Shown here one piece after another: positions 25,745 to 38,848 of a stretch of 64,000 nt of DNA. Both the position numbers and the translations under genes were made by a program. Positions within the stretch are counted from its first letter, which is position 1; every line of letters starts with the position of its first letter. The notes below the pieces were generated by a model that saw only the letters and a list, made by a program, of their open reading frames with translations, was not told the origin of the DNA and did no database searches. The stretch is from sequence record PZ166176.1; one strand, given 5' to 3'. Origin of the DNA: a phage.

Positions 25745-28700
25745 CTAGTGACAGGACGCCCAGGAATTACCCACATCATACCCAGCAGTAAGCTGAACAT
25801 TAAGATTGTAAAATTCTCCAGCCTTAGTAACAGCTAAAGCAGCAAGTTCACCTGCCCGACTATAAGCTGTAAACCATCCACCTTTGGGAGATTCATGAAT
25901 GTTAGCCCAAATTTGCCCTGTCTCTTTTTCCTTATTATGCTTCCATTCTTCGACTTTAGCAAGGCATTCTTTATCAATTTTCTTTTGTTCTTCAGGATCG
26001 TCTACTTTCTTCCAACCTAATGATTCAGGTGAAAACCATTTAAATTCTACAAGGTTACGAGAAACTTCAAGCTGGGCTTCATCGTGATATGCAATCATTT
26101 GTTGCACGAAATCTTTATTCTTCCAGTCATCTTTAAAGAAGTCAACACTTAGCCCTTCTTCTTCGATCATGTCATCATAAATAACCATTGCACGTTTAGC
26201 ACAGATAACCCCACCGCTTTGGAACAGAGAGTTAAGAATCGCGTGAGCAGAACGAGTAGGAACCTTACGACCGTCAATACCCAAAACATATTGTTTACCA
26301 GTCTTAACCCAGAAATCGTTTAAACGTTCTTTAAGACGCGCCAATGGGAATGCAGCTTCCCAGAAAGCATCGAACACCAATTGCCCTGTAAACTTGTCGC
26401 TACCAATTGTTTTAGCAACCTTGTCGGCTTGTGCACCATAGGTAATACCATACTTAACAGATTTAGCAGGACTACGTTCAAATTTACGTCCAATAGTTTC
26501 AGTGATACGTTTTGCCATCATTGTGTGAACATCATTAGGTTTCTCTAACAACAGAGCGTTACAATATTCGTGTGGCTCCGGCTCGTACCGCCAACAGTTT
26601 CCTGTGATGGTAATGCAGTCTTTCTGACGCATGACCCACGTACCAAGTTCTGTTTGTGGACACCAAACATCCTCTACACCCCACTCTTCAATAGTCAAAC
26701 TTTGAACAGGAATGTGAGAGCGGTTAGTCAATGTTGCCACTTTTACTTTCTGCTCTTTTGTATTGAAAGCTACAGAGATATTGCCTCCATGCACCAGGTA
26801 CGAGGCAGTTAAAGCTGCTTCAAAAAGTTCACCTGGGTTCTGCGCCCAACGCCAAACAGGTTTTTGTTTATGTTCGTGCCAGTAACCATCTGCAATCAAG
26901 AAACCTTCCAAGAAAGCTACACGCTCGGCATGAGACATATTAACTACACGTTCTACCCACGGAACATCCCATTTACCTTGTTGAACAGAAGTTAAACTAT
27001 TTACCTGATCTTGTTCCATGTTAAATGGAGCATTACAAATAATGTTATCTCCTGTGCAAAGCTCGGCAGTTGTTCTGACTTTAGGCACATAAGTATTCCC
27101 TTTACTACGGGTATTAACATACCAACGGTGATCTGCTGTTGCACGGTAAGTGTGTGATTTCCCTTTAATCTCAAACGTCTTACTATTTTTATAGAAGACC
27201 TTACCTTTTACTTTAGTCCATTCTTTCAGACCTGTTTCAGCATTGTACCCTAAAATCTCATCCCCTTCCTTCAGGTCGTGATATCCTACCCAACCTTTAC
27301 GAGTCAAAGCTTGAGCATCCATCGGCACACAGTAATGCGATTCAATTTTTGCTTCCAAAGAGTCGAAGTCGTAGCCAATCTGGAAGTATTTAGGAACTTC
27401 TACACCAAACAAGTTACGCATCTCCCATCCAAACAAAGATGTGACACGAGGAATATTAGCTACAGATCTATGCTTCATACGAGAGGTTGCAGCATCACAT
27501 GTAGCGGCTGGGGTAGGAATACGCCCATCCGCCCTTACTGCGGCTAAGAAACCTTTATCGTATTCTTGATCTTCTTCATCTTCTTCCCAATCGGCACCGC
27601 CACCTAAAATAGAGTTCCTACGATGCTTATACGTTAAGTATTCTACAATCTGTGTAGCATAAGGAAACTTCTCACCCAAAGCTTGCAGGTTAGGACAAAT
27701 TTCTTTTTCCTGACCTTTGGTAAAACACGGGTTAGTCAATACTTTAAGACCGCGACCTTTACCTTTTGCTATACGCTCTTGAATCTTCCTTTCCAGGGTT
27801 TCCGGTGTGCACTCCAGATGATCACAACGATCCTGACAAAAATTAGAAGATAGGGTTTGCTCAACGTAAGCTCGAATACCTTTCTGAAGTTCTTCCTCGC
27901 TCTTTTTAATTTTGGTGCCAGATTTAAGCGTCAAGTCTTTATCTTTATATTCAGACGGTACCCAACCTAATCCTACGAGCCAGTTTTTAATATGGGTTGT
28001 ATCGTTCAATGTTGCAGGGATGTTAGGATCACATAGAGGCTCATCTGCTGCAACTGGTAGTTTCCACTCTTTCCCCAACATAACTAACCACCAATCGCCA
28101 TCCCTCTCTTCCAAATGACCATCATGTTTCTTAGCAAAATTGATCATATGGTTAGTTGGCTCTAAGTTCTTTTTAATTTGCAACTTAGGTGGAATAAAAG
28201 CCTTAAGATAACCTTTTGTTGCTGGTTTAGGTGGCAAAATAGGCTCAACGAGTAAACGAAGACGCTCCATTTCTGCATCCAAAAAAGCAAGGTTCTCTTC
28301 TGCTTGCTTCATGTTAAAAGCAAACCCACGGTGTTCCTGGCGTGTAATAATGTCTGCTACACGTTGTTCAAGTTCAAACGGACCTTCCCATTTATCATAA
28401 TCACCCCATTCTTCCATAAGGTAATTATATACGCTCGTATTGGCTTTGTTGTCATAGATACAGTAATAAAGCATGTCCGCAGCAAAAGTCTTAAATCGAT
28501 CCTCTTCTGGAATCTCTTTACGGAAATCTATTTTTACATCACCACCTGCCTTTCGAGAAAGTGCTGCCAAACTATGTCCTGATTTGCCCTCAATCTTTCG
28601 ATCTGGGTTTAACACTTTACTCAAAATCAAGGAGTCAATAAGTTTTACCTTATTTTTGCCCCACGTGTTATATTTAACACTGTAATCTAAGCCATAAAAC

Positions 28701-29077
28701 AGTTTTGTAGCCAACCAGTCGTAGTTGATACCGTTGTGAGCCACAGCCATTTCAACCAGATATTCAGGCTTATCTTTAAAATAACCTTCATGATTAATAA
28801 AGTCTGGGAAATCTTTTAGTTGAAAATGTGTGTAATCTTGCGCCACATACTCTTTAAGAACATATGTGTATTTGCCATCTGACTCTTCATAAGGACGCCC
28901 ATCAAAGATGTATTTAGGACCATCGTGGAAAGCTACTATTTCTCCTGTTTCATGGTTCTCTAAGACAATACAGTGCATTTGAAATGTGTCTTTGAGACGA
29001 TAAGGACTAGCTAAATAATCAATAGTGTCATTATTCAACAATCCGTTTGCTTCAATATCCCATGTAAACTTACTCAC
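25745..29077 (-). CDS. family A DNA polymerase (T7/Pol I-like) interrupted by an intein
   Basis: 1110 aa; exonuclease motif WDIEANGL; motif A YDFDSLEAKIESHY; motif B RSPAKSVKYGITYG; motif C YHDEAQLE; about 245 extra residues lie between motifs A and B. Confidence 0.85.
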   Translation of the reverse strand: MSKFTWDIEANGLLNNDTIDYLASPYRLKDTFQMHCIVLENHETGEIVAFHDGPKYIFDGRPYEESDGKYTYVLKEYVAQDYTHFQLKDFPDFINHEGYFKDKPEYLVEMAVAHNGINYDWLATKLFYGLDYSVKYNTWGKNKVKLIDSLILSKVLNPDRKIEGKSGHSLAALSRKAGGDVKIDFRKEIPEEDRFKTFAADMLYYCIYDNKANTSVYNYLMEEWGDYDKWEGPFELEQRVADIITRQEHRGFAFNMKQAEENLAFLDAEMERLRLLVEPILPPKPATKGYLKAFIPPKLQIKKNLEPTNHMINFAKKHDGHLEERDGDWWLVMLGKEWKLPVAADEPLCDPNIPATLNDTTHIKNWLVGLGWVPSEYKDKDLTLKSGTKIKKSEEELQKGIRAYVEQTLSSNFCQDRCDHLECTPETLERKIQERIAKGKGRGLKVLTNPCFTKGQEKEICPNLQALGEKFPYATQIVEYLTYKHRRNSILGGGADWEEDEEDQEYDKGFLAAVRADGRIPTPAATCDAATSRMKHRSVANIPRVTSLFGWEMRNLFGVEVPKYFQIGYDFDSLEAKIESHYCVPMDAQALTRKGWVGYHDLKEGDEILGYNAETGLKEWTKVKGKVFYKNSKTFEIKGKSHTYRATADHRWYVNTRSKGNTYVPKVRTTAELCTGDNIICNAPFNMEQDQVNSLTSVQQGKWDVPWVERVVNMSHAERVAFLEGFLIADGYWHEHKQKPVWRWAQNPGELFEAALTASYLVHGGNISVAFNTKEQKVKVATLTNRSHIPVQSLTIEEWGVEDVWCPQTELGTWVMRQKDCITITGNCWRYEPEPHEYCNALLLEKPNDVHTMMAKRITETIGRKFERSPAKSVKYGITYGAQADKVAKTIGSDKFTGQLVFDAFWEAAFPLARLKERLNDFWVKTGKQYVLGIDGRKVPTRSAHAILNSLFQSGGVICAKRAMVIYDDMIEEEGLSVDFFKDDWKNKDFVQQMIAYHDEAQLEVSRNLVEFKWFSPESLGWKKVDDPEEQKKIDKECLAKVEEWKHNKEKETGQIWANIHESPKGGWFTAYSRAGELAALAVTKAGEFYNLNVQLTAGYDVGNSWASCH
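26597..27331 (-). mobile_element. intein (Hint domain with LAGLIDADG-like motif) inside the DNA polymerase gene
   Basis: Residues 583-827: begins with Cys right after motif A, block-B-like TADH, FLEGFLIADGY (LAGLIDADG-like), ends ITGN followed by Cys +1; flanking sequence restores normal motif A to motif B spacing. Confidence 0.6.
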
Positions 29078-29871
29078 TATTCCTCCTTTCTAATGTTCTC
29101 CAGAACCCACTGAAGTTCTTTTAAACTTAAACTTCTTACTCCCGCAGTTTTACTAGCTTCAGCTTTAAGTAACGGGTAAGCCTCAATGATACGCGTTTTA
29201 AGATCAGAAGTCAAGGCTTTTAAAAAATAGGTAGATGCTTCAGATAAAGAATCTTCTTCTGATAACACTTTACCTGCACTTGCTCCCGCTCTCCTAACAG
29301 CTATATCGTAGTCTTTACTGTTACCTAATACGAACAGTCGATTCTCTCCTAAAACAACGGGAGAACGCTTCTCGTTGCGTTTAATCCATACTTGGAATAC
29401 ACAAGGAACATCCCAAGGTTCTCCATGAAGAATAAAAGATCCTTTTGGACATTCTTCTTCGTAAAGAAGATGCATATGGGGATTTAGTTTGTGTGCAAAA
29501 AAGATTTTTTGAAATGTGCGAGGCAAGATAAAACAAATACCACCTTCGTTATCCAGCATTTCAGCACAATGGTTAAAGAATTTAATGGCAAGACTAGCAT
29601 TTTTTCCAAATGGAGGATTACCGACAAAAGCAGTTACACTACCAACAGACTCAACAGATTGAGCTAAAAAATCTGCCTCAATACAATCTTCAAACTTAGG
29701 GTCAATATCAAAAGAAGTTATGTTTTTAAAACAAGAAGAGAAAGCTCCTTCTCCCGCAGATGGTTCTACGTAGTTAGCTTCCTCTCCAAAAATTTCTTTG
29801 ATCTTATCACATAAGAACCCCGCATAAGCGGGGTTAGTGTAATATTGATCAAGTGTGTTCAACTTGCTCAA
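29077..29871 (-). CDS. N6-adenine DNA methyltransferase (gamma-class, TaqI-like)
   Basis: DQYYTNP (target-base motif), VEPSAGEGAF (SAM-binding motif I) then NPPFG (motif IV) in gamma-class order. Confidence 0.75.
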   Translation of the reverse strand: MSKLNTLDQYYTNPAYAGFLCDKIKEIFGEEANYVEPSAGEGAFSSCFKNITSFDIDPKFEDCIEADFLAQSVESVGSVTAFVGNPPFGKNASLAIKFFNHCAEMLDNEGGICFILPRTFQKIFFAHKLNPHMHLLYEEECPKGSFILHGEPWDVPCVFQVWIKRNEKRSPVVLGENRLFVLGNSKDYDIAVRRAGASAGKVLSEEDSLSEASTYFLKALTSDLKTRIIEAYPLLKAEASKTAGVRSLSLKELQWVLENIRKEE

Positions 29872-32195: not shown

Positions 32196-32474
32196 TTAAA
32201 ATGGTTCGTTAGTCTCCATCATATATTCTGCTTCTAGTTCTTCCATATGCTTTCTAAATTGGAAAGCAATTTCTGCTACAGTTACATTTAAATCTTTTTC
32301 AAAAACTTCTGTAGAGCCTTCATAAAAACGAATACCGTCAATTAAAAGCCCTCCGTGGTAATCCCAATCACTTTCACGAGAAAGCGGGTTAGGCTCTTCA
32401 TAATAGTAATCCACCTCCACAACTAAGGCTTTCCCGTTACGAGTGGTGTATTCAAAATCAAAAGTGTTAATCAT
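32196..32474 (-). CDS. hypothetical protein
   Basis: 92 aa acidic ORF. Confidence 0.4.
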   Translation of the reverse strand: MINTFDFEYTTRNGKALVVEVDYYYEEPNPLSRESDWDYHGGLLIDGIRFYEGSTEVFEKDLNVTVAEIAFQFRKHMEELEAEYMMETNEPF

Positions 32475-33418
32475 TATAGCTCCTCAAATAAAAGTCTACG
32501 ACGCTCATTCAACACATCAATGTGATAATGAGTCCTGACATACTTAGCTAATGCTAATCCTTTCTCCATGCAAACATCGGGAGCACTTAATAAGTATTCC
32601 GTAATATCTTTCCACTCGGAAGGTGTTTCAGCAAAGAATAACAAATCTTTAAACTCTTGTGTATGATAATTCTCACGAGGAGAACAGATCAAAGGTAAAC
32701 CCTTAGCACCTGCCTCAAGAATTTTAAGATTGCTTTTTGCATTATTAAACACGTTATCAATCAATGGCGCAAGACTGATTTGATGACCATCGTAAGATTC
32801 CATGTAGTTGGCATATGGTCTTACACCTTCATAAACACAAGTTGGTGCTACATTTTCTCTGATTACAGACCATTCACGACTACTTAAAACTTCAGAATCC
32901 CTACGAAAACCACATATTGTAAGATCTTTACCAAAATCGGGCAAGATAGCCAAATCTTGTTTATGTGTTTCACTTCCAGCCCAGACTAATGGAGTTTTGG
33001 AGTAGCGATCACGGGTCAACACAAATTGACCTTCATCATAAGGAAGTCCATTAGGGATTATGTGCACATTATCATTGTATTGTGAAAGTTCAACTTGCAA
33101 GGCAGGTGTCGTAGTTGTAACAAGATCACTGTGCTCTAAAAACCATTTTAAATGTTCACGAATACCTGATTCAAAAATACCTTCTAACATGTGTCCTTTT
33201 GGAATAACTAAAGAGTCATCCAAATCCATAACCATTTTAAAGCCTAGGTTTTTAAGGGCTAAAAAGCCCTCTTTACCTTTTGTTGGCACTCCGTTAAAAA
33301 CGAAAACGTTGTATTTAGGTTGTGAAGAGAACTGCCTTGAGTAAGGCAGCACTACCCTATGGAAATCGCAGACACTATAATTGATTCCGTTACGATTGTC
33401 AAGAATTATTTGTCCCAT
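32474..33418 (-). CDS. glycosyltransferase, GT-B-like (paralogue 1)
   Basis: 314 aa; paralogue of 33426..34373 (shared VWAG...SNLKILEAGAKG-x-P-x-CS); the LEAGAKG-P motif resembles the GT-B C-terminal motif. Confidence 0.45.
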   Translation of the reverse strand: MGQIILDNRNGINYSVCDFHRVVLPYSRQFSSQPKYNVFVFNGVPTKGKEGFLALKNLGFKMVMDLDDSLVIPKGHMLEGIFESGIREHLKWFLEHSDLVTTTTPALQVELSQYNDNVHIIPNGLPYDEGQFVLTRDRYSKTPLVWAGSETHKQDLAILPDFGKDLTICGFRRDSEVLSSREWSVIRENVAPTCVYEGVRPYANYMESYDGHQISLAPLIDNVFNNAKSNLKILEAGAKGLPLICSPRENYHTQEFKDLLFFAETPSEWKDITEYLLSAPDVCMEKGLALAKYVRTHYHIDVLNERRRLLFEEL

Positions 33419-33425
33419 ACTTCAC

Positions 33426-34373
33426 CTACAAACTTTCAATAACCTGGCGTCGCAACTCATTTGCATCTGCCAGATTATAATGTGTTCGAACATGTTCAGC
33501 CAAGAACAAGCCACGATCTTCCCGATAGTTTGGATTGCGAAGAAGCTTAACAATTTCGTAATGCCATTCTGCTTTGTTCTCTGCGTAAGCAACAGCACGA
33601 GCATCTACAGGGTTAAAATAAGGTAATACCTTAGAACAAACAATCGGAATACCCTTTGCTCCAGCTTCTAGGATTTTGAGATTACTTTTACAATTATTAA
33701 AATCATTATCTACCAAAGGAGCTATAGCAATAGCATGACTTTCGTAAACACTCATGTAATTATCTAAATCTTTTACAGCAGCTTTATATTTAGCATTTGG
33801 TAAATTTCTGCGAATCTTAATCCACTCTTGTCCCGTGATGCTCTGCGATGCTTCATATCCCGCAATAGTAAGAAGTTCATCATCGAAAGTATTAGAGACT
33901 AGTCGTAAATCGGGTTCGTGACTAGCACCGCCAGCCCATACAACAGGGGTACCGGATGAACGATCATTTGACAAAGTGAATTGTCCACTATCAAAAGGAA
34001 GTGCATTTCGGATCACAACAACATTCCTATTTAAGTGACGGATCTTATATGCCAAGTATTCCGTAGTCACAATAACCACATCAGCAAGCTTAACCATAGC
34101 CACAATAGCATGAGTGTTTGACTCGTATAAACTTGCTAAATAATGCTCTGGATTAAGTTGGTAAAAATCATCTAAATCTACAACAACCTTAACACCTTGA
34201 CGTTTCAAAGATAAAACGTATTCTGCACCTTTAGAGTGGATACGGTTAAACACAACAATATCTTTCTTAGGTTGAAAATTATTGTTGTTAAATGGCATAA
34301 CAATACGATGATAGTCACAACCGCTATGAGGTTTTGCATCAATTTTTAGTTTAGACCATTTTTTATTTGACAT
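33426..34373 (-). CDS. glycosyltransferase, GT-B-like (paralogue 2)
   Basis: 315 aa; co-linear similarity to 32474..33418 (HRIVMPFNN, VVDLDD, VWAGGASHEPDL, KSNLKILEAGAKGIPIVCS). Confidence 0.45.
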   Translation of the reverse strand: MSNKKWSKLKIDAKPHSGCDYHRIVMPFNNNNFQPKKDIVVFNRIHSKGAEYVLSLKRQGVKVVVDLDDFYQLNPEHYLASLYESNTHAIVAMVKLADVVIVTTEYLAYKIRHLNRNVVVIRNALPFDSGQFTLSNDRSSGTPVVWAGGASHEPDLRLVSNTFDDELLTIAGYEASQSITGQEWIKIRRNLPNAKYKAAVKDLDNYMSVYESHAIAIAPLVDNDFNNCKSNLKILEAGAKGIPIVCSKVLPYFNPVDARAVAYAENKAEWHYEIVKLLRNPNYREDRGLFLAEHVRTHYNLADANELRRQVIESL

Positions 34374-35046
34374 GTGCTAGTGCCTCCTCATAGGAAATTC
34401 GGATTTTCCCATTTTTAATATCCTCTAAAGATGCTTTATATTCTTCCCAGTTAATCCCGATAGCAGCTTCTTTCTCTTCTTTTGTCAGATTAGCAAAAGG
34501 CATAGGGTTGTTTCCAAAAACATCGTCTGGGTGGATATAAGCCATGATACGAAGTGGACAAGGTGTTGCCTGAATACCATGATTCAAACCAGCAGCTTTC
34601 AAACGGTGTCCCCATTCGGCATCTTCAAAACCATAACCGTGAGTGTAAGGGCGGAAATAACCCATCTTCTCAACAACGGCACGAGAATACATTGCAAATT
34701 GACACATTGCAAGTTCCCAGAGAATAACTTCTCCTTTGCTTCCAACAACTTTATCTTTGAAGTACTCCGGCATACCAAAGAAATCCCATCCTCCAGAAAC
34801 AGCTTGATCTACAAAGTATGTTTCCCATCCTTCCATGACTGGGTAGCAATCGTCGTCAAAAATAAACCAATAATCATAACCTTCTTCATAAAACTGGTGC
34901 ATAAGTTCATTCCTGGCATAAGCTACACCTTTACGGTCTGGATCGTTGAATACTCGAAAATCTGCACGTGGATCTGTTACAAGGTAGTCTTTAAGTGGGC
35001 GGACACCTACAGTGATAACACCCACTCCGATTTTAATATTTTCCAT
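34363..35046 (-). CDS. glycosyltransferase, GT-A-like
   Basis: 227 aa; acidic DxD-type region WFIFDDDCYP and YGFEDAEW. Confidence 0.4.
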   Translation of the reverse strand: MENIKIGVGVITVGVRPLKDYLVTDPRADFRVFNDPDRKGVAYARNELMHQFYEEGYDYWFIFDDDCYPVMEGWETYFVDQAVSGGWDFFGMPEYFKDKVVGSKGEVILWELAMCQFAMYSRAVVEKMGYFRPYTHGYGFEDAEWGHRLKAAGLNHGIQATPCPLRIMAYIHPDDVFGNNPMPFANLTKEEKEAAIGINWEEYKASLEDIKNGKIRISYEEALAHVK

Positions 35047-35054
35047 TTTCTCTC

Positions 35055-35618
35055 CTAAATAGTTTTACTGTGATCGTGACAGTGTAATAAATGATGTATA
35101 GACCGTTGAGGATTTGTTTGACCTAATCTGTAAATGTGAAACAGATACATTCCCCGCATCAATCCTAACCTCTTTCCTTTTTCATGTAAAGTGCGAGAGA
35201 AAATTAAGTCGAATTGGATAGATTTTTCTTCGAAATGAATTTCATTCCACAATGATTTTCTAAAAAGCAAAAAGAAACCTGCCAAAGGTGTTCCGAAAGG
35301 AACTTCTTCAACACTCACTTTATGATATTCTCTTGCAATCTTAGCATATTCTATATGGTTTAGAATATCTGGATCATCGTTAATTTGGTTAGAGAAAAGC
35401 TGATAACCACTGCCTAACCTGTTACAAGTTGCACCTATTACATCAAAAGGCGGGTTTGACATAACAAGCTCTTCAAGCATAGATGGTTGATCAGGTAGGA
35501 GGAACATTGTATCGGTATCTCTTAAACACACCCAACTATCATCTGGAAGAACGGCAATGGCTTCATTGATAGCCTTGCCGATATTTCCTGTCAGATAGGG
35601 AGTAATATAATAAATCAT
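35055..35618 (-). CDS. putative glycosyltransferase, GT-A-like
   Basis: 187 aa; LRDTDTMF DxD-like motif after a Rossmann-like N-terminus; weak. Confidence 0.3.
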   Translation of the reverse strand: MIYYITPYLTGNIGKAINEAIAVLPDDSWVCLRDTDTMFLLPDQPSMLEELVMSNPPFDVIGATCNRLGSGYQLFSNQINDDPDILNHIEYAKIAREYHKVSVEEVPFGTPLAGFFLLFRKSLWNEIHFEEKSIQFDLIFSRTLHEKGKRLGLMRGMYLFHIYRLGQTNPQRSIHHLLHCHDHSKTI

Positions 35619-36319: not shown

Positions 36320-36841
36320 TTAACTCCCCTTTGGTAGATAGAAACCATGCACTTTATCTCGATAAACAAGACGCATATCACGTTCCCAGTGTGTCCTTAT
36401 ATTCCGTTTCTTGAAGTATAGAGCACCTTTAGTAACATCTAAAACAGACCGCAATTCAGGAAAATGTTTCTCTAAATAAAGTAAACGCTCCGCTATTGCT
36501 TTTGCTTCCTGCCACTTATCTTTCTCTGTTACGTTAAAAGTTTTCGCATATGAGAATTGTCCTTTCTGGAACAAGACTCCTCTGACTGTGTTAGGGAAGT
36601 AGGTATCATTTCTTCTGTTGATTACCACGTTCCCAACGGCATTCATTCCTTTTTTACCCAGACCGCGACCTTCTGCGTAAATTGCACAAGCTAATAGAAT
36701 TTTATCATTATATTGCTTTGTACATTTGTGAACTACTTTAGCGGTTTTTACGTTTGCAGCTTCGGCTTTCGCCACAACAGGTGTAAATGTAAAAGCAGTT
36801 AAGGATAGTAACGCAACTGTTACAAAGTTTTTTATCAGCAA
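36320..36841 (-). CDS. secreted cell-wall hydrolase, SleB / Hydrolase_2-like
   Basis: Signal peptide (LLSLTAFTFTPVVAKA) then LACAIYAEGRGLGKKGMNAVGNVVINRRNDTYFPNTVRGVLFQKGQFSY; apparent TTG start 7 nt after AAAGGAGG. Confidence 0.6.
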   Translation of the reverse strand: MLIKNFVTVALLSLTAFTFTPVVAKAEAANVKTAKVVHKCTKQYNDKILLACAIYAEGRGLGKKGMNAVGNVVINRRNDTYFPNTVRGVLFQKGQFSYAKTFNVTEKDKWQEAKAIAERLLYLEKHFPELRSVLDVTKGALYFKKRNIRTHWERDMRLVYRDKVHGFYLPKGS

Positions 36842-36940: not shown

Positions 36941-37543
36941 TTATGGACATTCATACCATTCTTTTTTACCACCGAAGGCCATCACCACATCACAAATATC
37001 CAGACCAGCTTTACCTACACCATATGCTTTCAGCTTCCATTCCCCATCTTCACGGACCAAGGAAGCCACGTGGCAGATTGTGTTGCCAGCTACTTCAGGA
37101 GCCAGGAAGTCAAAATCCAGAATTTCCACATTGCGCTCGGAGTCGAAGATTTTAAGCATACCTTCAGAAGCATGACCAAAACGTTTCAGACCTGTATCAT
37201 CATCAATGGTCAGAACAAAGGCAATCTCTTGTGCATCAGGAGAGATTTTAGCTAGAGTAATATCAATCTGCTCCATGCTGCCAGTTCCATCACGAACATC
37301 GTCACCAGCGAAGGTAGAACGTTCAGGATCAAACTTGTTAGCATAGCAAACCAGATGACGTGCAGACAGCATTTCAGGATTGCCAGCGGCATTGTGACGA
37401 CAAACCAGTGCACTTACATCCAGATCCAGTTTAGAATCAGATTTCCAAGAGAATTCAAGGCGCAGTTCTTTCAGAGCCGGAGCAACTTTCTTCAGGGAAA
37501 TTTTTTCGCTAGAGCCTTTTTTCAGGGAAATTTTATCAGTCAT
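36941..37543 (-). CDS. terD: TerD-domain protein (tellurite resistance TerD/TerE/TerZ family)
   Basis: 200 aa; co-linear with E. coli TerD as recalled from memory: ISLKKG...ISLKK vs VSLSKGGNVSLSK; LDLDVSAL vs FDLDASAF; GDDVRDGTG...IAFVLTI vs GDNRTGEGDG...IIFVVTI; EDGEWKLKAYGVG vs HNGEWKFRAVGQG. Confidence 0.85.
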   Translation of the reverse strand: MTDKISLKKGSSEKISLKKVAPALKELRLEFSWKSDSKLDLDVSALVCRHNAAGNPEMLSARHLVCYANKFDPERSTFAGDDVRDGTGSMEQIDITLAKISPDAQEIAFVLTIDDDTGLKRFGHASEGMLKIFDSERNVEILDFDFLAPEVAGNTICHVASLVREDGEWKLKAYGVGKAGLDICDVVMAFGGKKEWYECP

Positions 37544-37558: not shown

Positions 37559-37828
37559 TTATTTAAGTGTAATACCAGTTACAGTCAATTCTACTTCCAA
37601 AAGCTTAGATGTGTTTTGGATTGATACTAATTGTGCATGATGGTTTAGTTCTACAGCAGAACAATCATTTTCCCCATCATCTACTTTTAAATAAACAATG
37701 ATTTCACTAAGGTCTAAACCATTTTCGTCAAATGCATTTTCATAGACGAAAGTATCTCCTACATCCAAATCTTTAATGGTAAGGCATCGTTTATTTACTT
37801 TTTGCTCATCAATTTCGAAGTTTAACAC
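37559..37828 (-). CDS. hypothetical protein (paralogue of 38850..39194)
   Basis: 89 aa; shares DLDVGDTFVYENAFDENGLD and a C-terminal LEVELTVTGITLK with the 114 aa ORF. Confidence 0.45.
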   Translation of the reverse strand: MLNFEIDEQKVNKRCLTIKDLDVGDTFVYENAFDENGLDLSEIIVYLKVDDGENDCSAVELNHHAQLVSIQNTSKLLEVELTVTGITLK

Positions 37829-38057
37829 TTCTTCCTCCTAATGTTATCTCCGGTTTGTATATACGAAGAATTATAGCATTTTCATTTTCTTTGTCAACCC
37901 ATTCTTCATAATCGGGCCATACATGAATCTCTACTCTACTTACAATATCTTCCATTCGCACAGTCCCAATGAAATACTCTTTGAGACTGCGCATAATGAA
38001 AGCTTCTCTCTCGCGCCAATAATTTTCTATGACTTGAGAGGCAAGCTCGTCGATCAT
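37809..38057 (-). CDS. hypothetical protein
   Basis: 82 aa ORF, ATGA-coupled. Confidence 0.4.
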   Translation of the reverse strand: MIDELASQVIENYWREREAFIMRSLKEYFIGTVRMEDIVSRVEIHVWPDYEEWVDKENENAIILRIYKPEITLGGRSVKLRN

Positions 38058-38848
38058 TTTTTAGCACCTACTTTAACAACCCACTCTCCGAACTCTTCAG
38101 ATAAGAGTTTGTCATAAAGCTCTGAATCTGTCAAGTCTAAATCTTTAATGCCAATAAAACCAACATTATCATAAGCATTTGCCAGTTCTTTCAGGAAGCC
38201 GAACTTCTCATTACCAACGCCAACCATGAACCAATAAATAGGTTTATTCTTATTCTCTTCGATAAGACGACGAACAGCACTAGGATCACCATTCTCACCA
38301 TCCGTCTGGAAGAATACAACACCAGGGGTAACGTCAGCACCTGGTTCAGATACAGCTACAACTTTTTCACGCTCTACAGACACTGTTTCAGTTTTACCAA
38401 GCAGACGATTAAAGAAGCCTTTCTTTGGAGCCTCCTCTTGTACCACTTGTTTAGTGGTAATATATTTAGTAACAGTGCCAAAATACTCATCGTAGATATC
38501 CGCCATTACAGGGGCGTAATTTGTTCCACCTCCGATACGAACATTACGCATACATTTGCCAACATAGTCATCGTAAACATCTGCTGTTGCTGGAGTAAGC
38601 TCTTGGGAACTCGTATTGAAGGCCCACATATCAATTTGTTGATTATCGTCGAACAGCATACCAAAAGGAAGCAGTTTACCTACAAAATCACTCACTACCC
38701 CACTAGAATATAGACCATGCATACTACCAGAAATATCTAGAGCACATGCTACACGAAGAACAATCTTACCTTCATTCAGGTTCTTATTCTTTTTCAGAGA
38801 GAAAGCAAGGTTTTCTTGACGTTTTTTCAGGCTGATTTTCTCGGACAT
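38054..38848 (-). CDS. von Willebrand factor A domain protein (TerY-like)
   Basis: 264 aa; MIDAS motif ACALDISGSM and FFQTDGENGD; N-terminus MSEKISLKK echoes the TerD N-terminus. Confidence 0.6.
   Translation of the reverse strand: MSEKISLKKRQENLAFSLKKNKNLNEGKIVLRVACALDISGSMHGLYSSGVVSDFVGKLLPFGMLFDDNQQIDMWAFNTSSQELTPATADVYDDYVGKCMRNVRIGGGTNYAPVMADIYDEYFGTVTKYITTKQVVQEEAPKKGFFNRLLGKTETVSVEREKVVAVSEPGADVTPGVVFFQTDGENGDPSAVRRLIEENKNKPIYWFMVGVGNEKFGFLKELANAYDNVGFIGIKDLDLTDSELYDKLLSEEFGEWVVKVGAKK

Follow-up and report, generated by a model that had tools for sequence, protein, structure and literature searches.

Four consecutive glycosyltransferase (GT) genes lie beside the primase/helicase gene in the phage sequence PZ166176.1, raising the question of which molecule their products glycosylate. 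By sequence similarity, the window analysed here (a stretch of 64,000 nt from this record) is that of a phAPEC8-like Phapecoctavirus in the subfamily Stephanstirmvirinae. The 3.6-kb region holding the GT cassette matches 71 phage records, the best being 'Acinetobacter phage' vB_AbaM_ABPW7 (99.9%), and is 98.5% identical to phAPEC8. Neither the genes nor the proposal that they act on DNA is new. RefSeq annotates all four as glycosyltransferases (phAPEC8 gp074 to gp071), and phi92 carries all four in an identical order and setting (its genes 166 to 163), with predicted folds noted in its record. Olsen et al. (2020; PMC7552041) described a complete dTDP-rhamnose pathway in phapecoctaviruses and phi92-like phages and speculated that the rhamnose glycosylates hydroxymethylated nucleotides. 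No functional test of the cassette was found within the searchable literature. A preliminary description of the window also favoured glycosylation of DNA bases for anti-restriction, with virion or host glycans as a fallback. What is new is that the GTs form a mobile module (phrog_14179/phrog_2456/phrog_7162) that is widespread and, outside the Stephanstirmvirinae, lies mostly beside head and packaging genes. The published DNA reading is now disfavoured, and the best-supported reading is glycosylation of phage proteins or virions by GT families that are unrelated to validated ones and are coupled to a rhamnose pathway. With this, the eight-gene puzzle (four GTs plus RmlABCD) noted since at least 2020 becomes a directly testable question.

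The preliminary description had placed four GT genes at 32474-35618, and all four open reading frames (ORFs) were indeed present there, on the minus strand and with exactly these limits. They encode a minimal GT-A enzyme of 187 aa (35055..35618; phrog_14179; cassette gene 1), a GT-A (GT2-like) enzyme of 227 aa (34363..35046; phrog_2456) and two GT-B enzymes of 315 aa (paralogue 1, 33426..34373) and 314 aa (paralogue 2, 32474..33418). Both GT-B proteins match phrog_7162 (E 5.5e-149 and 5e-145, respectively) and are 41% identical to each other (E 3e-77), in agreement with their earlier description as paralogues. The 314-aa protein marginally passes the Pfam cut-off for Glyco_trans_1_2 (25.2 bits versus 25), and the 315-aa protein has weak matches below cut-off to Glyco_trans_1_4 and Glyco_trans_1_2 (22.8 and 20.8 bits). 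Across the phrog_7162 family (n = 33), Glyco_trans_1_2 was detected in 27 members (E <0.01, best 9e-10) and Glyco_trans_1_4 in 26, while the N-terminal domain models Glyco_transf_4 and Glyco_transf_4_4 were detected in 7 and 4 members. The phi92 record also carries the note 'predicted GT-B fold' on the orthologue. Therefore, the predicted GT-B (GT4-like) assignment of both proteins holds, since most family members match Glyco_trans_1 models even though the window's own matches are marginal. The 315-aa protein, which has 207 homologues in the protein database, contains invariant residues C19, H22 and R23 near its N-terminus and a KSNLKxLEAG motif in its C-terminal domain. The GT-B duplication is also found in phi92 (genes 163 and 164), and some Klebsiella relatives are single-copy.

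The 227-aa and 187-aa proteins are each modelled as a single Rossmann-like alpha/beta/alpha GT-A fold, and the two are mutually unrelated. A DxD motif for binding of metal and nucleotide sugar, which follows a beta-strand, is kept in both families (D64, D65 and D66 invariant among 16 sequences; D34 and D36 nearly invariant among 23 sequences), consistent with their earlier description as GT-A-like. Neither protein gave a significant Pfam, NCBIfam or PDB sequence match, and the gathering score of Pfam Glycos_transf_2 (PF00535) was not reached (14.4 bits versus 23.3 for the 227-aa protein; no match for the 187-aa protein). We conclude that they share the GT-A fold and lie outside the curated PF00535 sequence family. 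The NCBIfam search assigned no family to the GTs, and PDB searches with single sequences and profiles of all three families returned chance-level matches only, at E up to 1-10. When BFVD was searched with the 227-aa model in Foldseek, only unnamed or generic GT2-like viral proteins were found and nothing on the acceptor. None of the four GTs has a transmembrane segment or signal peptide (no 19-residue Kyte-Doolittle window exceeded 1.65); their isoelectric points span 4.96-8.54 and were not used as evidence.

Each GT gene is preceded by its own Shine-Dalgarno sequence, and successive genes are spaced by 7, -11 and 8 nt. In comparisons with the phi92 orthologues, the four genes showed a pN (nonsynonymous) of 0.16-0.25 against a saturated pS (synonymous) of 0.68-0.82, similar to primase/helicase. 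Low pN relative to pS demonstrates that these are real genes, not chance ORFs, under purifying selection and as constrained as the primase/helicase gene.

Where else these families occur bears directly on their likely acceptor. Relatives of the GT-B were present on over 581 viral contigs, and their phages range from those of Streptomyces to those of Pseudomonas. The genomes of ~185,000 bacterial species gave just 20 loci, mostly prophages. The order phrog_14179, phrog_2456, phrog_7162 recurs in unrelated phages. An Enterobacter huaxiensis prophage has endolysin, phrog_14179, a phrog_540 sugar epimerase, phrog_2456, phrog_7162, HNH, small and large terminase subunit (TerS and TerL) and capsid genes in succession. 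In Pseudomonas prophages, phrog_2456 and phrog_7162 are followed by TerS, TerL, portal and capsid genes, and Streptomyces phage Zuko has a phrog_540 epimerase, phrog_7162 (E 7e-57), a TerS-like gene, TerL, portal and capsid. A terminase, portal or capsid gene lay within 5 kb of the GT-B gene in at least 22 of 42 clusters defined at 80% identity; this distance count, made from a few BLAST seeds, is a lower bound, and no significance is claimed for it. Replication genes were nearby only in the Stephanstirmvirinae-like clusters and in one small genome among the same 42. Independent insertions were found directly upstream of HNH/TerS/TerL (loci L004, L006, L012, L027 and L036), between TerL and portal (L048 and the Chitinophaga locus L109), after portal (L042) and directly after the major head protein (L034, L038, L044, L045 and the Paraburkholderia locus L103). 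The module is also present in temperate phages of 30-50 kb, lambdoid phages among them, where it often falls between capsid and tail genes; the examined flanks in such small temperate phages held no nucleotide-metabolism genes. In 10 lineages, with GC contents from 38% to 68%, the cassette has the same GC content as its flanks, and its genes overlap one another by 4-17 nt; the cassette genes are therefore operon-embedded and not autonomous conversion morons. In about 20 viral contigs with a capsid of the Enterobacter-prophage type (L199-L221, L234, L235, L239 and L248), a phrog_2456-like GT-A gene lies upstream of the terminase and no phrog_7162 GT-B was detectable, so the GT-A can travel alone.

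The only clearly non-phage context was a chromosomal locus in Burkholderia dolosa and two Trinickia species (L005, L011, L100, L102 and L104). Here, the gene order is a Big_1 protein, an invasin/intimin-type inverse autotransporter, a 555-aa Ig-like protein and a GT-B that is 42-45% identical to the phage enzyme. Judging from this order, the Burkholderiaceae locus may be an adhesin glycosylation system, and a GT-B homologue in an adhesin locus points to a protein acceptor.

The sugar donor was assessed in phAPEC8 and relatives, as the rml genes lie outside the window. All four phAPEC8 Rml proteins pass the NCBIfam equivalog cut-offs (RmlA 464.5/360.7, RmlB 431.2/365.1, RmlC 225/155.8 and RmlD 237.1/224.1) and are encoded in the order RmlB-A-C-D (L002 37131-40409). 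About 25 of the 71 phapecoctavirus records match, at high identity, the RmlD-RmlC half only of this region. In ABPW7, the 99.9% relative of the window, RmlA and RmlB are cleanly absent and RmlC and RmlD are present (L117 5001-6403). Enterobacteria produce dTDP-4-keto-6-deoxyglucose via RffH/RffG for the synthesis of enterobacterial common antigen (ECA), and RmlC plus RmlD alone would therefore suffice for dTDP-L-rhamnose. Retention of RmlC/RmlD where RmlA/RmlB are gone argues for a phage requirement for rhamnose itself, with dTDP-L-rhamnose the probable required product.

We tentatively propose that the cassette is a cytoplasmic pathway that adds a short glycan containing rhamnose to proteins of the phage, those of the head or of other parts of the virion being the most plausible acceptors. 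This reading we consider a serious possibility though still short of probable. We infer the acceptor, the order of action, the rhamnose-using enzyme and the biological benefit as follows. Phage RmlC and RmlD would make dTDP-L-rhamnose from dTDP-4-keto-6-deoxyglucose, which would be supplied by phage RmlA/RmlB or, where the phage copies have been lost, by the host (presumably RffH/RffG or RmlA/RmlB). The phrog_7162 GT-B, the component common to every version of the module, would attach the first sugar to the acceptor, and the other GT-B, together with both GT-A enzymes, would extend or branch the glycan. The glycan might benefit the virion as a shield, by stabilising it or by altering its adhesion. 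Of the two halves of the fallback offered in the preliminary description, the evidence points mainly to virion or other protein acceptors, and the host-envelope half is less favoured.

Several observations weigh against virion-protein glycosylation. No glycosylated virions have been reported for any Stephanstirmvirinae phage in the literature searched, and the cassette families have no detectable sequence relation to validated actinophage virion GTs (hhalign probability <1%). In the window, the cassette is not beside structural genes, and it shares a gene string with primase/helicase and DNA polymerase, behind a candidate sigma-70-like promoter. Elsewhere, head-gene proximity is only moderately above that of a random gene in a 30-50 kb phage, and DNA methyltransferases are also often near terminases. 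GT families switch acceptor readily and the Burkholderiaceae context is only suggestive. A candidate acceptor site in the capsid also met with a counter-example. Capsid ends were compared among L044, L045, L103, L006 and L118-L276 and with the phAPEC8 capsid gene (L116 18525-19526). Thr is the last residue of five HK97-type capsid proteins whose genes adjoin the cassette (...AAPTT, ...TQAT, ...HPTT, ...GSTT and ...NTTT; four TT and one AT), compared with 0 of 76 GT-less relatives of one capsid subfamily, the closest of which ends ...AAPTP. We rejected the C-terminal Thr-Thr as the acceptor site, as a GT-less member of a second subfamily (L203) ends ...NSTT and Ser/Thr/Gly-rich tails are general. 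Stephanstirmvirinae capsids end ...LTTA and those of GT-less Vequintavirinae end ...ATLKGGE or ...STGKFTA, a comparison too thin to weigh. The C-terminal Thr may still be a lead on the acceptor site, and we give it little weight.

One alternative is DNA hypermodification, in which the GTs would put rhamnose or other sugars on phage DNA bases to evade nucleases, as raised for the rhamnose pathway by Olsen et al. (2020; PMC7552041). It gains from the sharing of a gene string with primase/helicase, an N6-adenine methyltransferase-like gene and DNA polymerase, from the position of the phAPEC8 rml genes among nucleotide-metabolism genes (NrdAB, glutaredoxin and ThyX-like), and from the ~70% of the genome's genes that lack a known function, leaving room for an unrecognised base-modifying enzyme. 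The 227-aa GT-A also weakly matches Pfam TAGT (PF20691; E 1.2e-3) and phrog_842, a beta-glucosyl-HMC (hydroxymethylcytosine) alpha-glucosyltransferase family (E 7.5e-6). We rejected these matches as a sign of DNA-GT identity, since they cover only a generic DxD segment (residues 32-70) and the TAGT gathering score was not reached (19.3 versus 27.5 bits, with residues 32-68 aligned). None of the GTs showed similarity to T4 AGT or BGT in Pfam or, by sequence or profile, in PDB, although both T4 enzymes have solved structures. There are also data from phages with orthologous genes. The complete cassette is present in the BASEL phages PaulScherrer, EmilieFrey and JohannJBalmer, where it matches that of phi92 along its full length (100%) at 97.6-98.2% identity. 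These phages also encode RmlA, and the BASEL/phi92 orthologues are 66-76% identical at the amino-acid level to the window's GTs. Therefore, the restriction-modification (RM) data from this collection apply to carriers of orthologous genes, and the phi92-like BASEL group is reported to be 'exceptionally susceptible' to RM systems 'despite a putative dTDP glycosylation machinery' (PMC8594841). The subfamily is also reported to be sensitive to Druantia III/III-A and ARMADA II; the DNA modifications of T4 defeat Druantia III, and all three systems failed against Straboviridae (PMC13463889; bioRxiv 10.64898/2026.05.13.724758). The preliminary description had suggested a search for a hydroxymethylase or thymidylate-synthase homologue. 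In the phAPEC8 whole-genome annotation, with one protein checked directly, this yielded no ThyA-family hydroxymethylase, TET/JBP, dCTPase or hydroxymethyl-dUMP (hmdUMP) kinase, and thus no hydroxymethyl-base pathway. The one protein, the 'putative thymidylate synthase' gp156 (annotated as similar to rV5 and PVP-SE1), matched ThyX weakly and below cut-off (31 bits). TET/JBP dioxygenase and C5-cytosine methyltransferase neighbours were neither annotated in phAPEC8 nor found in the flanks of the prophage loci. The presence of the cassette in lambdoid and other small temperate phages showing no genes for remodelling of the dNTP pool in the flanks examined, and of a close GT-B homologue in the Burkholderiaceae adhesin locus, also argues against a DNA acceptor. 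Base glycosylation for anti-restriction thus lost ground on the RM sensitivity of orthologue carriers, the annotated gene content and the small temperate phages, and the position of sugar transferases among replication genes proved a weak argument for DNA modification, because an endolysin gene lies in the same string and the module elsewhere accompanies head and packaging genes. For the phi92-like orthologues, these data effectively exclude a DNA modification dense enough to block restriction, and by orthology one is unlikely in the window; DNA hypermodification overall we judge improbable. Very improbable indeed is a sparse or sequence-specific form, in which rhamnose would be put directly on DNA without a hydroxymethyl intermediate, around packaging in the temperate phages. 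If true, such a mark would spare the type I-III enzymes tested in BASEL, might counter another defence and would be a new DNA glycosylation chemistry common to large lytic coliphages and small temperate phages. As a warning for annotation, a glycosyltransferase near replication genes should not be read as DNA hypermodification.

The cassette could instead remodel the host envelope, adding rhamnose branches at the cytoplasmic face to the lipopolysaccharide (LPS) core, O-antigen, ECA or another lipid-linked glycan, and this we regard as unlikely. Its effect would be receptor masking (superinfection exclusion and less progeny loss on debris) or, in prophages, lysogenic conversion. In lambda, conversion genes such as bor occupy the interval from the lysis genes to the terminase, which is also where the module lies in prophages, and phage RmlC/RmlD would tap the dTDP-4-keto-6-deoxyglucose pool that feeds ECA synthesis; both points favour an envelope target. 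So does the use of surface glycans as receptors by Stephanstirmvirinae (ECA/N4 glycan receptor (NGR) and LPS core glucose; PMC8594841). However, strictly lytic 150-kb phages retain the cassette without exception, and for them altering an existing outer membrane within one cycle would be slow. Moreover, there are no membrane GtrA/B/C-type proteins (the four GT proteins had no matches to the GtrABC families) and no integrase linkage, and autonomous moron features are absent, with GC equal to that of the flanks and overlapping genes that are co-directional inside head operons. The GT-B also occurs in phages whose hosts (Streptomyces, Chitinophaga, Pseudomonas and enterobacteria) have no envelope acceptor in common. 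A distinctly doubtful alternative is a non-structural target, such as a host protein modified during takeover (compare phage ADP-ribosyltransferases), a defence protein, a signalling molecule or a small metabolite. Apparently early or middle expression with replication genes from a predicted sigma-70-like promoter would fit, and a rhamnosylated translation factor provides a bacterial precedent (EarP/EF-P; PMC5615199). Yet EarP structures have been solved and no similarity to solved structures was detected at E up to 1, four transferases with a dedicated donor pathway suggest an oligosaccharide and not a single regulatory sugar, and repeated insertion into the head-morphogenesis modules of small phages would be hard to explain.

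Virion glycosylation has precedents in actinophages. Capsid glycosylation is reported to require gp110 in Che8 and gp38 in Corndog, and mycobacteriophage virion glycans lower antibody binding and the production of neutralising antibodies (Freeman et al. 2023, as cited in PMC12363180 and PMC11256854). The actinophage cassettes (Che8 gp108-110 and Corndog gp36-38) resemble the present module in comprising three to four soluble enzymes of GT-A/GT-B size, and in most phages with the present module the placement directly upstream of HNH/terminase or a major head gene is also alike; glycans on capsid or tail proteins are what we propose here. In contrast, the hosts here are Gram-negative, the donor pathway is for dTDP-rhamnose and, in the window, the neighbours include replication genes. 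The enzymes also differ, because the Che8/Corndog GTs belong to phrog_8858, 1721 and 854, which gave hhalign probabilities of 0.1-0.6% against the window families. Comparison by hhalign of Che8 gp108-110 with the profiles of all three families found no relation, and membership of the validated Che8-type virion-GT families was therefore rejected. T-even DNA glucosyltransferases and TAGT (PF20691) are likewise GT-A/GT-B enzymes of lytic phages that accompany replication genes and show weak local matches, but here no hydroxymethylase or TET partner is present in the phAPEC8 annotation, the carriers are RM-sensitive and the donor pathway is for dTDP-rhamnose, not UDP-glucose. The chlorovirus PBCV-1, a giant virus of eukaryotes, uses UDP-L-rhamnose. 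Its capsid glycosylation, which involves A064R and other viral GTs, including rhamnosyltransferase domains (reviewed in PMC9614988), shows a likeness at the level of the fold alone (8% identity) and is comparable to the proposed role of the cassette by analogy. Among bacterial systems, Aah and TibC are cytoplasmic heptosyltransferases that modify the adhesins AIDA-I and TibA. They share with the Burkholderiaceae GT-B, which lies directly downstream of the invasin/intimin and Ig-like proteins, a soluble GT gene beside a large adhesin gene, a likeness from gene context alone.

If virion glycosylation is confirmed, it would be the first such system in phages of Gram-negative hosts, as far as the literature searched shows. 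Given the antibody effects of mycobacteriophage glycans, the glycan could then affect the immunogenicity, gut stability and adhesion of phAPEC8- and phi92-like phages. These phages are among the coliphages with the broadest host range (PMC8594841).

The genes around the cassette bear on the claim that it is embedded in a replication block. On one side it is flanked by primase/helicase and a 92-aa ORF, and on the other by three small ORFs and then an endolysin gene, beyond which lie TerD and vWA-TerF-like genes. The same string also carries the N6-adenine methyltransferase-like gene and DNA polymerase. Hence, adjacency to primase/helicase and small ORFs stands, and the replication-block label does not, as the neighbours include endolysin, TerD and vWA-TerF-like genes besides primase/helicase; the string is a mixed operon and not purely a replication block. 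A candidate sigma-70 promoter (37870..37897, minus strand; TTGACA-16-TATAAT with an extended -10 TG) matches 12 of 12 consensus positions by pattern only and falls within the ORF at 37809..38057. A pattern scan found no terminator-like site on the minus strand between this candidate promoter (37897..37870) and the primase gene, and the site is a possible early promoter for the string that includes endolysin, the four GTs and primase/helicase.

Further features of this region were noted. The endolysin is of the SleB type (Hydrolase_2; 36320..36841, minus strand), and genes for a TerD-domain protein and a vWA-TerF-like protein (36941..37543 and 38054..38848, minus strand) lie just upstream; in phAPEC8, a 'tellurite resistance' gene is annotated farther upstream of these. 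A 264-aa protein (29077..29871, minus strand; phrog_5172) has a GNPPF motif and a weak Pfam match to Eco57I methylase, and its gene abuts the DNA polymerase gene. Its phAPEC8 counterpart is annotated as a putative N6-adenine DNA methyltransferase, and the NPPF motif is of the N6-adenine type. The DNA polymerase I gene itself (25745..29077, minus strand) contains an in-frame insert of 245 residues relative to phAPEC8 (residues 583-827, approx. 26597..27331). This insert starts with Cys, finishes ...ITITGN and is followed by Cys, and the flanking exteins are 100% identical to phAPEC8. The insert thus has apparent hallmarks of an intein, and no Hint or homing-endonuclease domain was matched in Pfam at E up to 0.01. 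Finally, host names were compared with sequence matches for public records that include MG065650, MG065639, MG065689, OP562383, OR584014, OK210077 and others. Records labelled as Campylobacter or Acinetobacter phages are 97.5-99.9% identical to E. coli Stephanstirmvirinae over the cassette, a Serratia-phage record is 97.8% identical over the cassette, and a Pseudomonas-phage record is 86.6% identical to the phAPEC8 rml region. The host labels of these Campylobacter, Acinetobacter, Serratia and Pseudomonas records look doubtful and suggest a contaminant or propagation-host issue.

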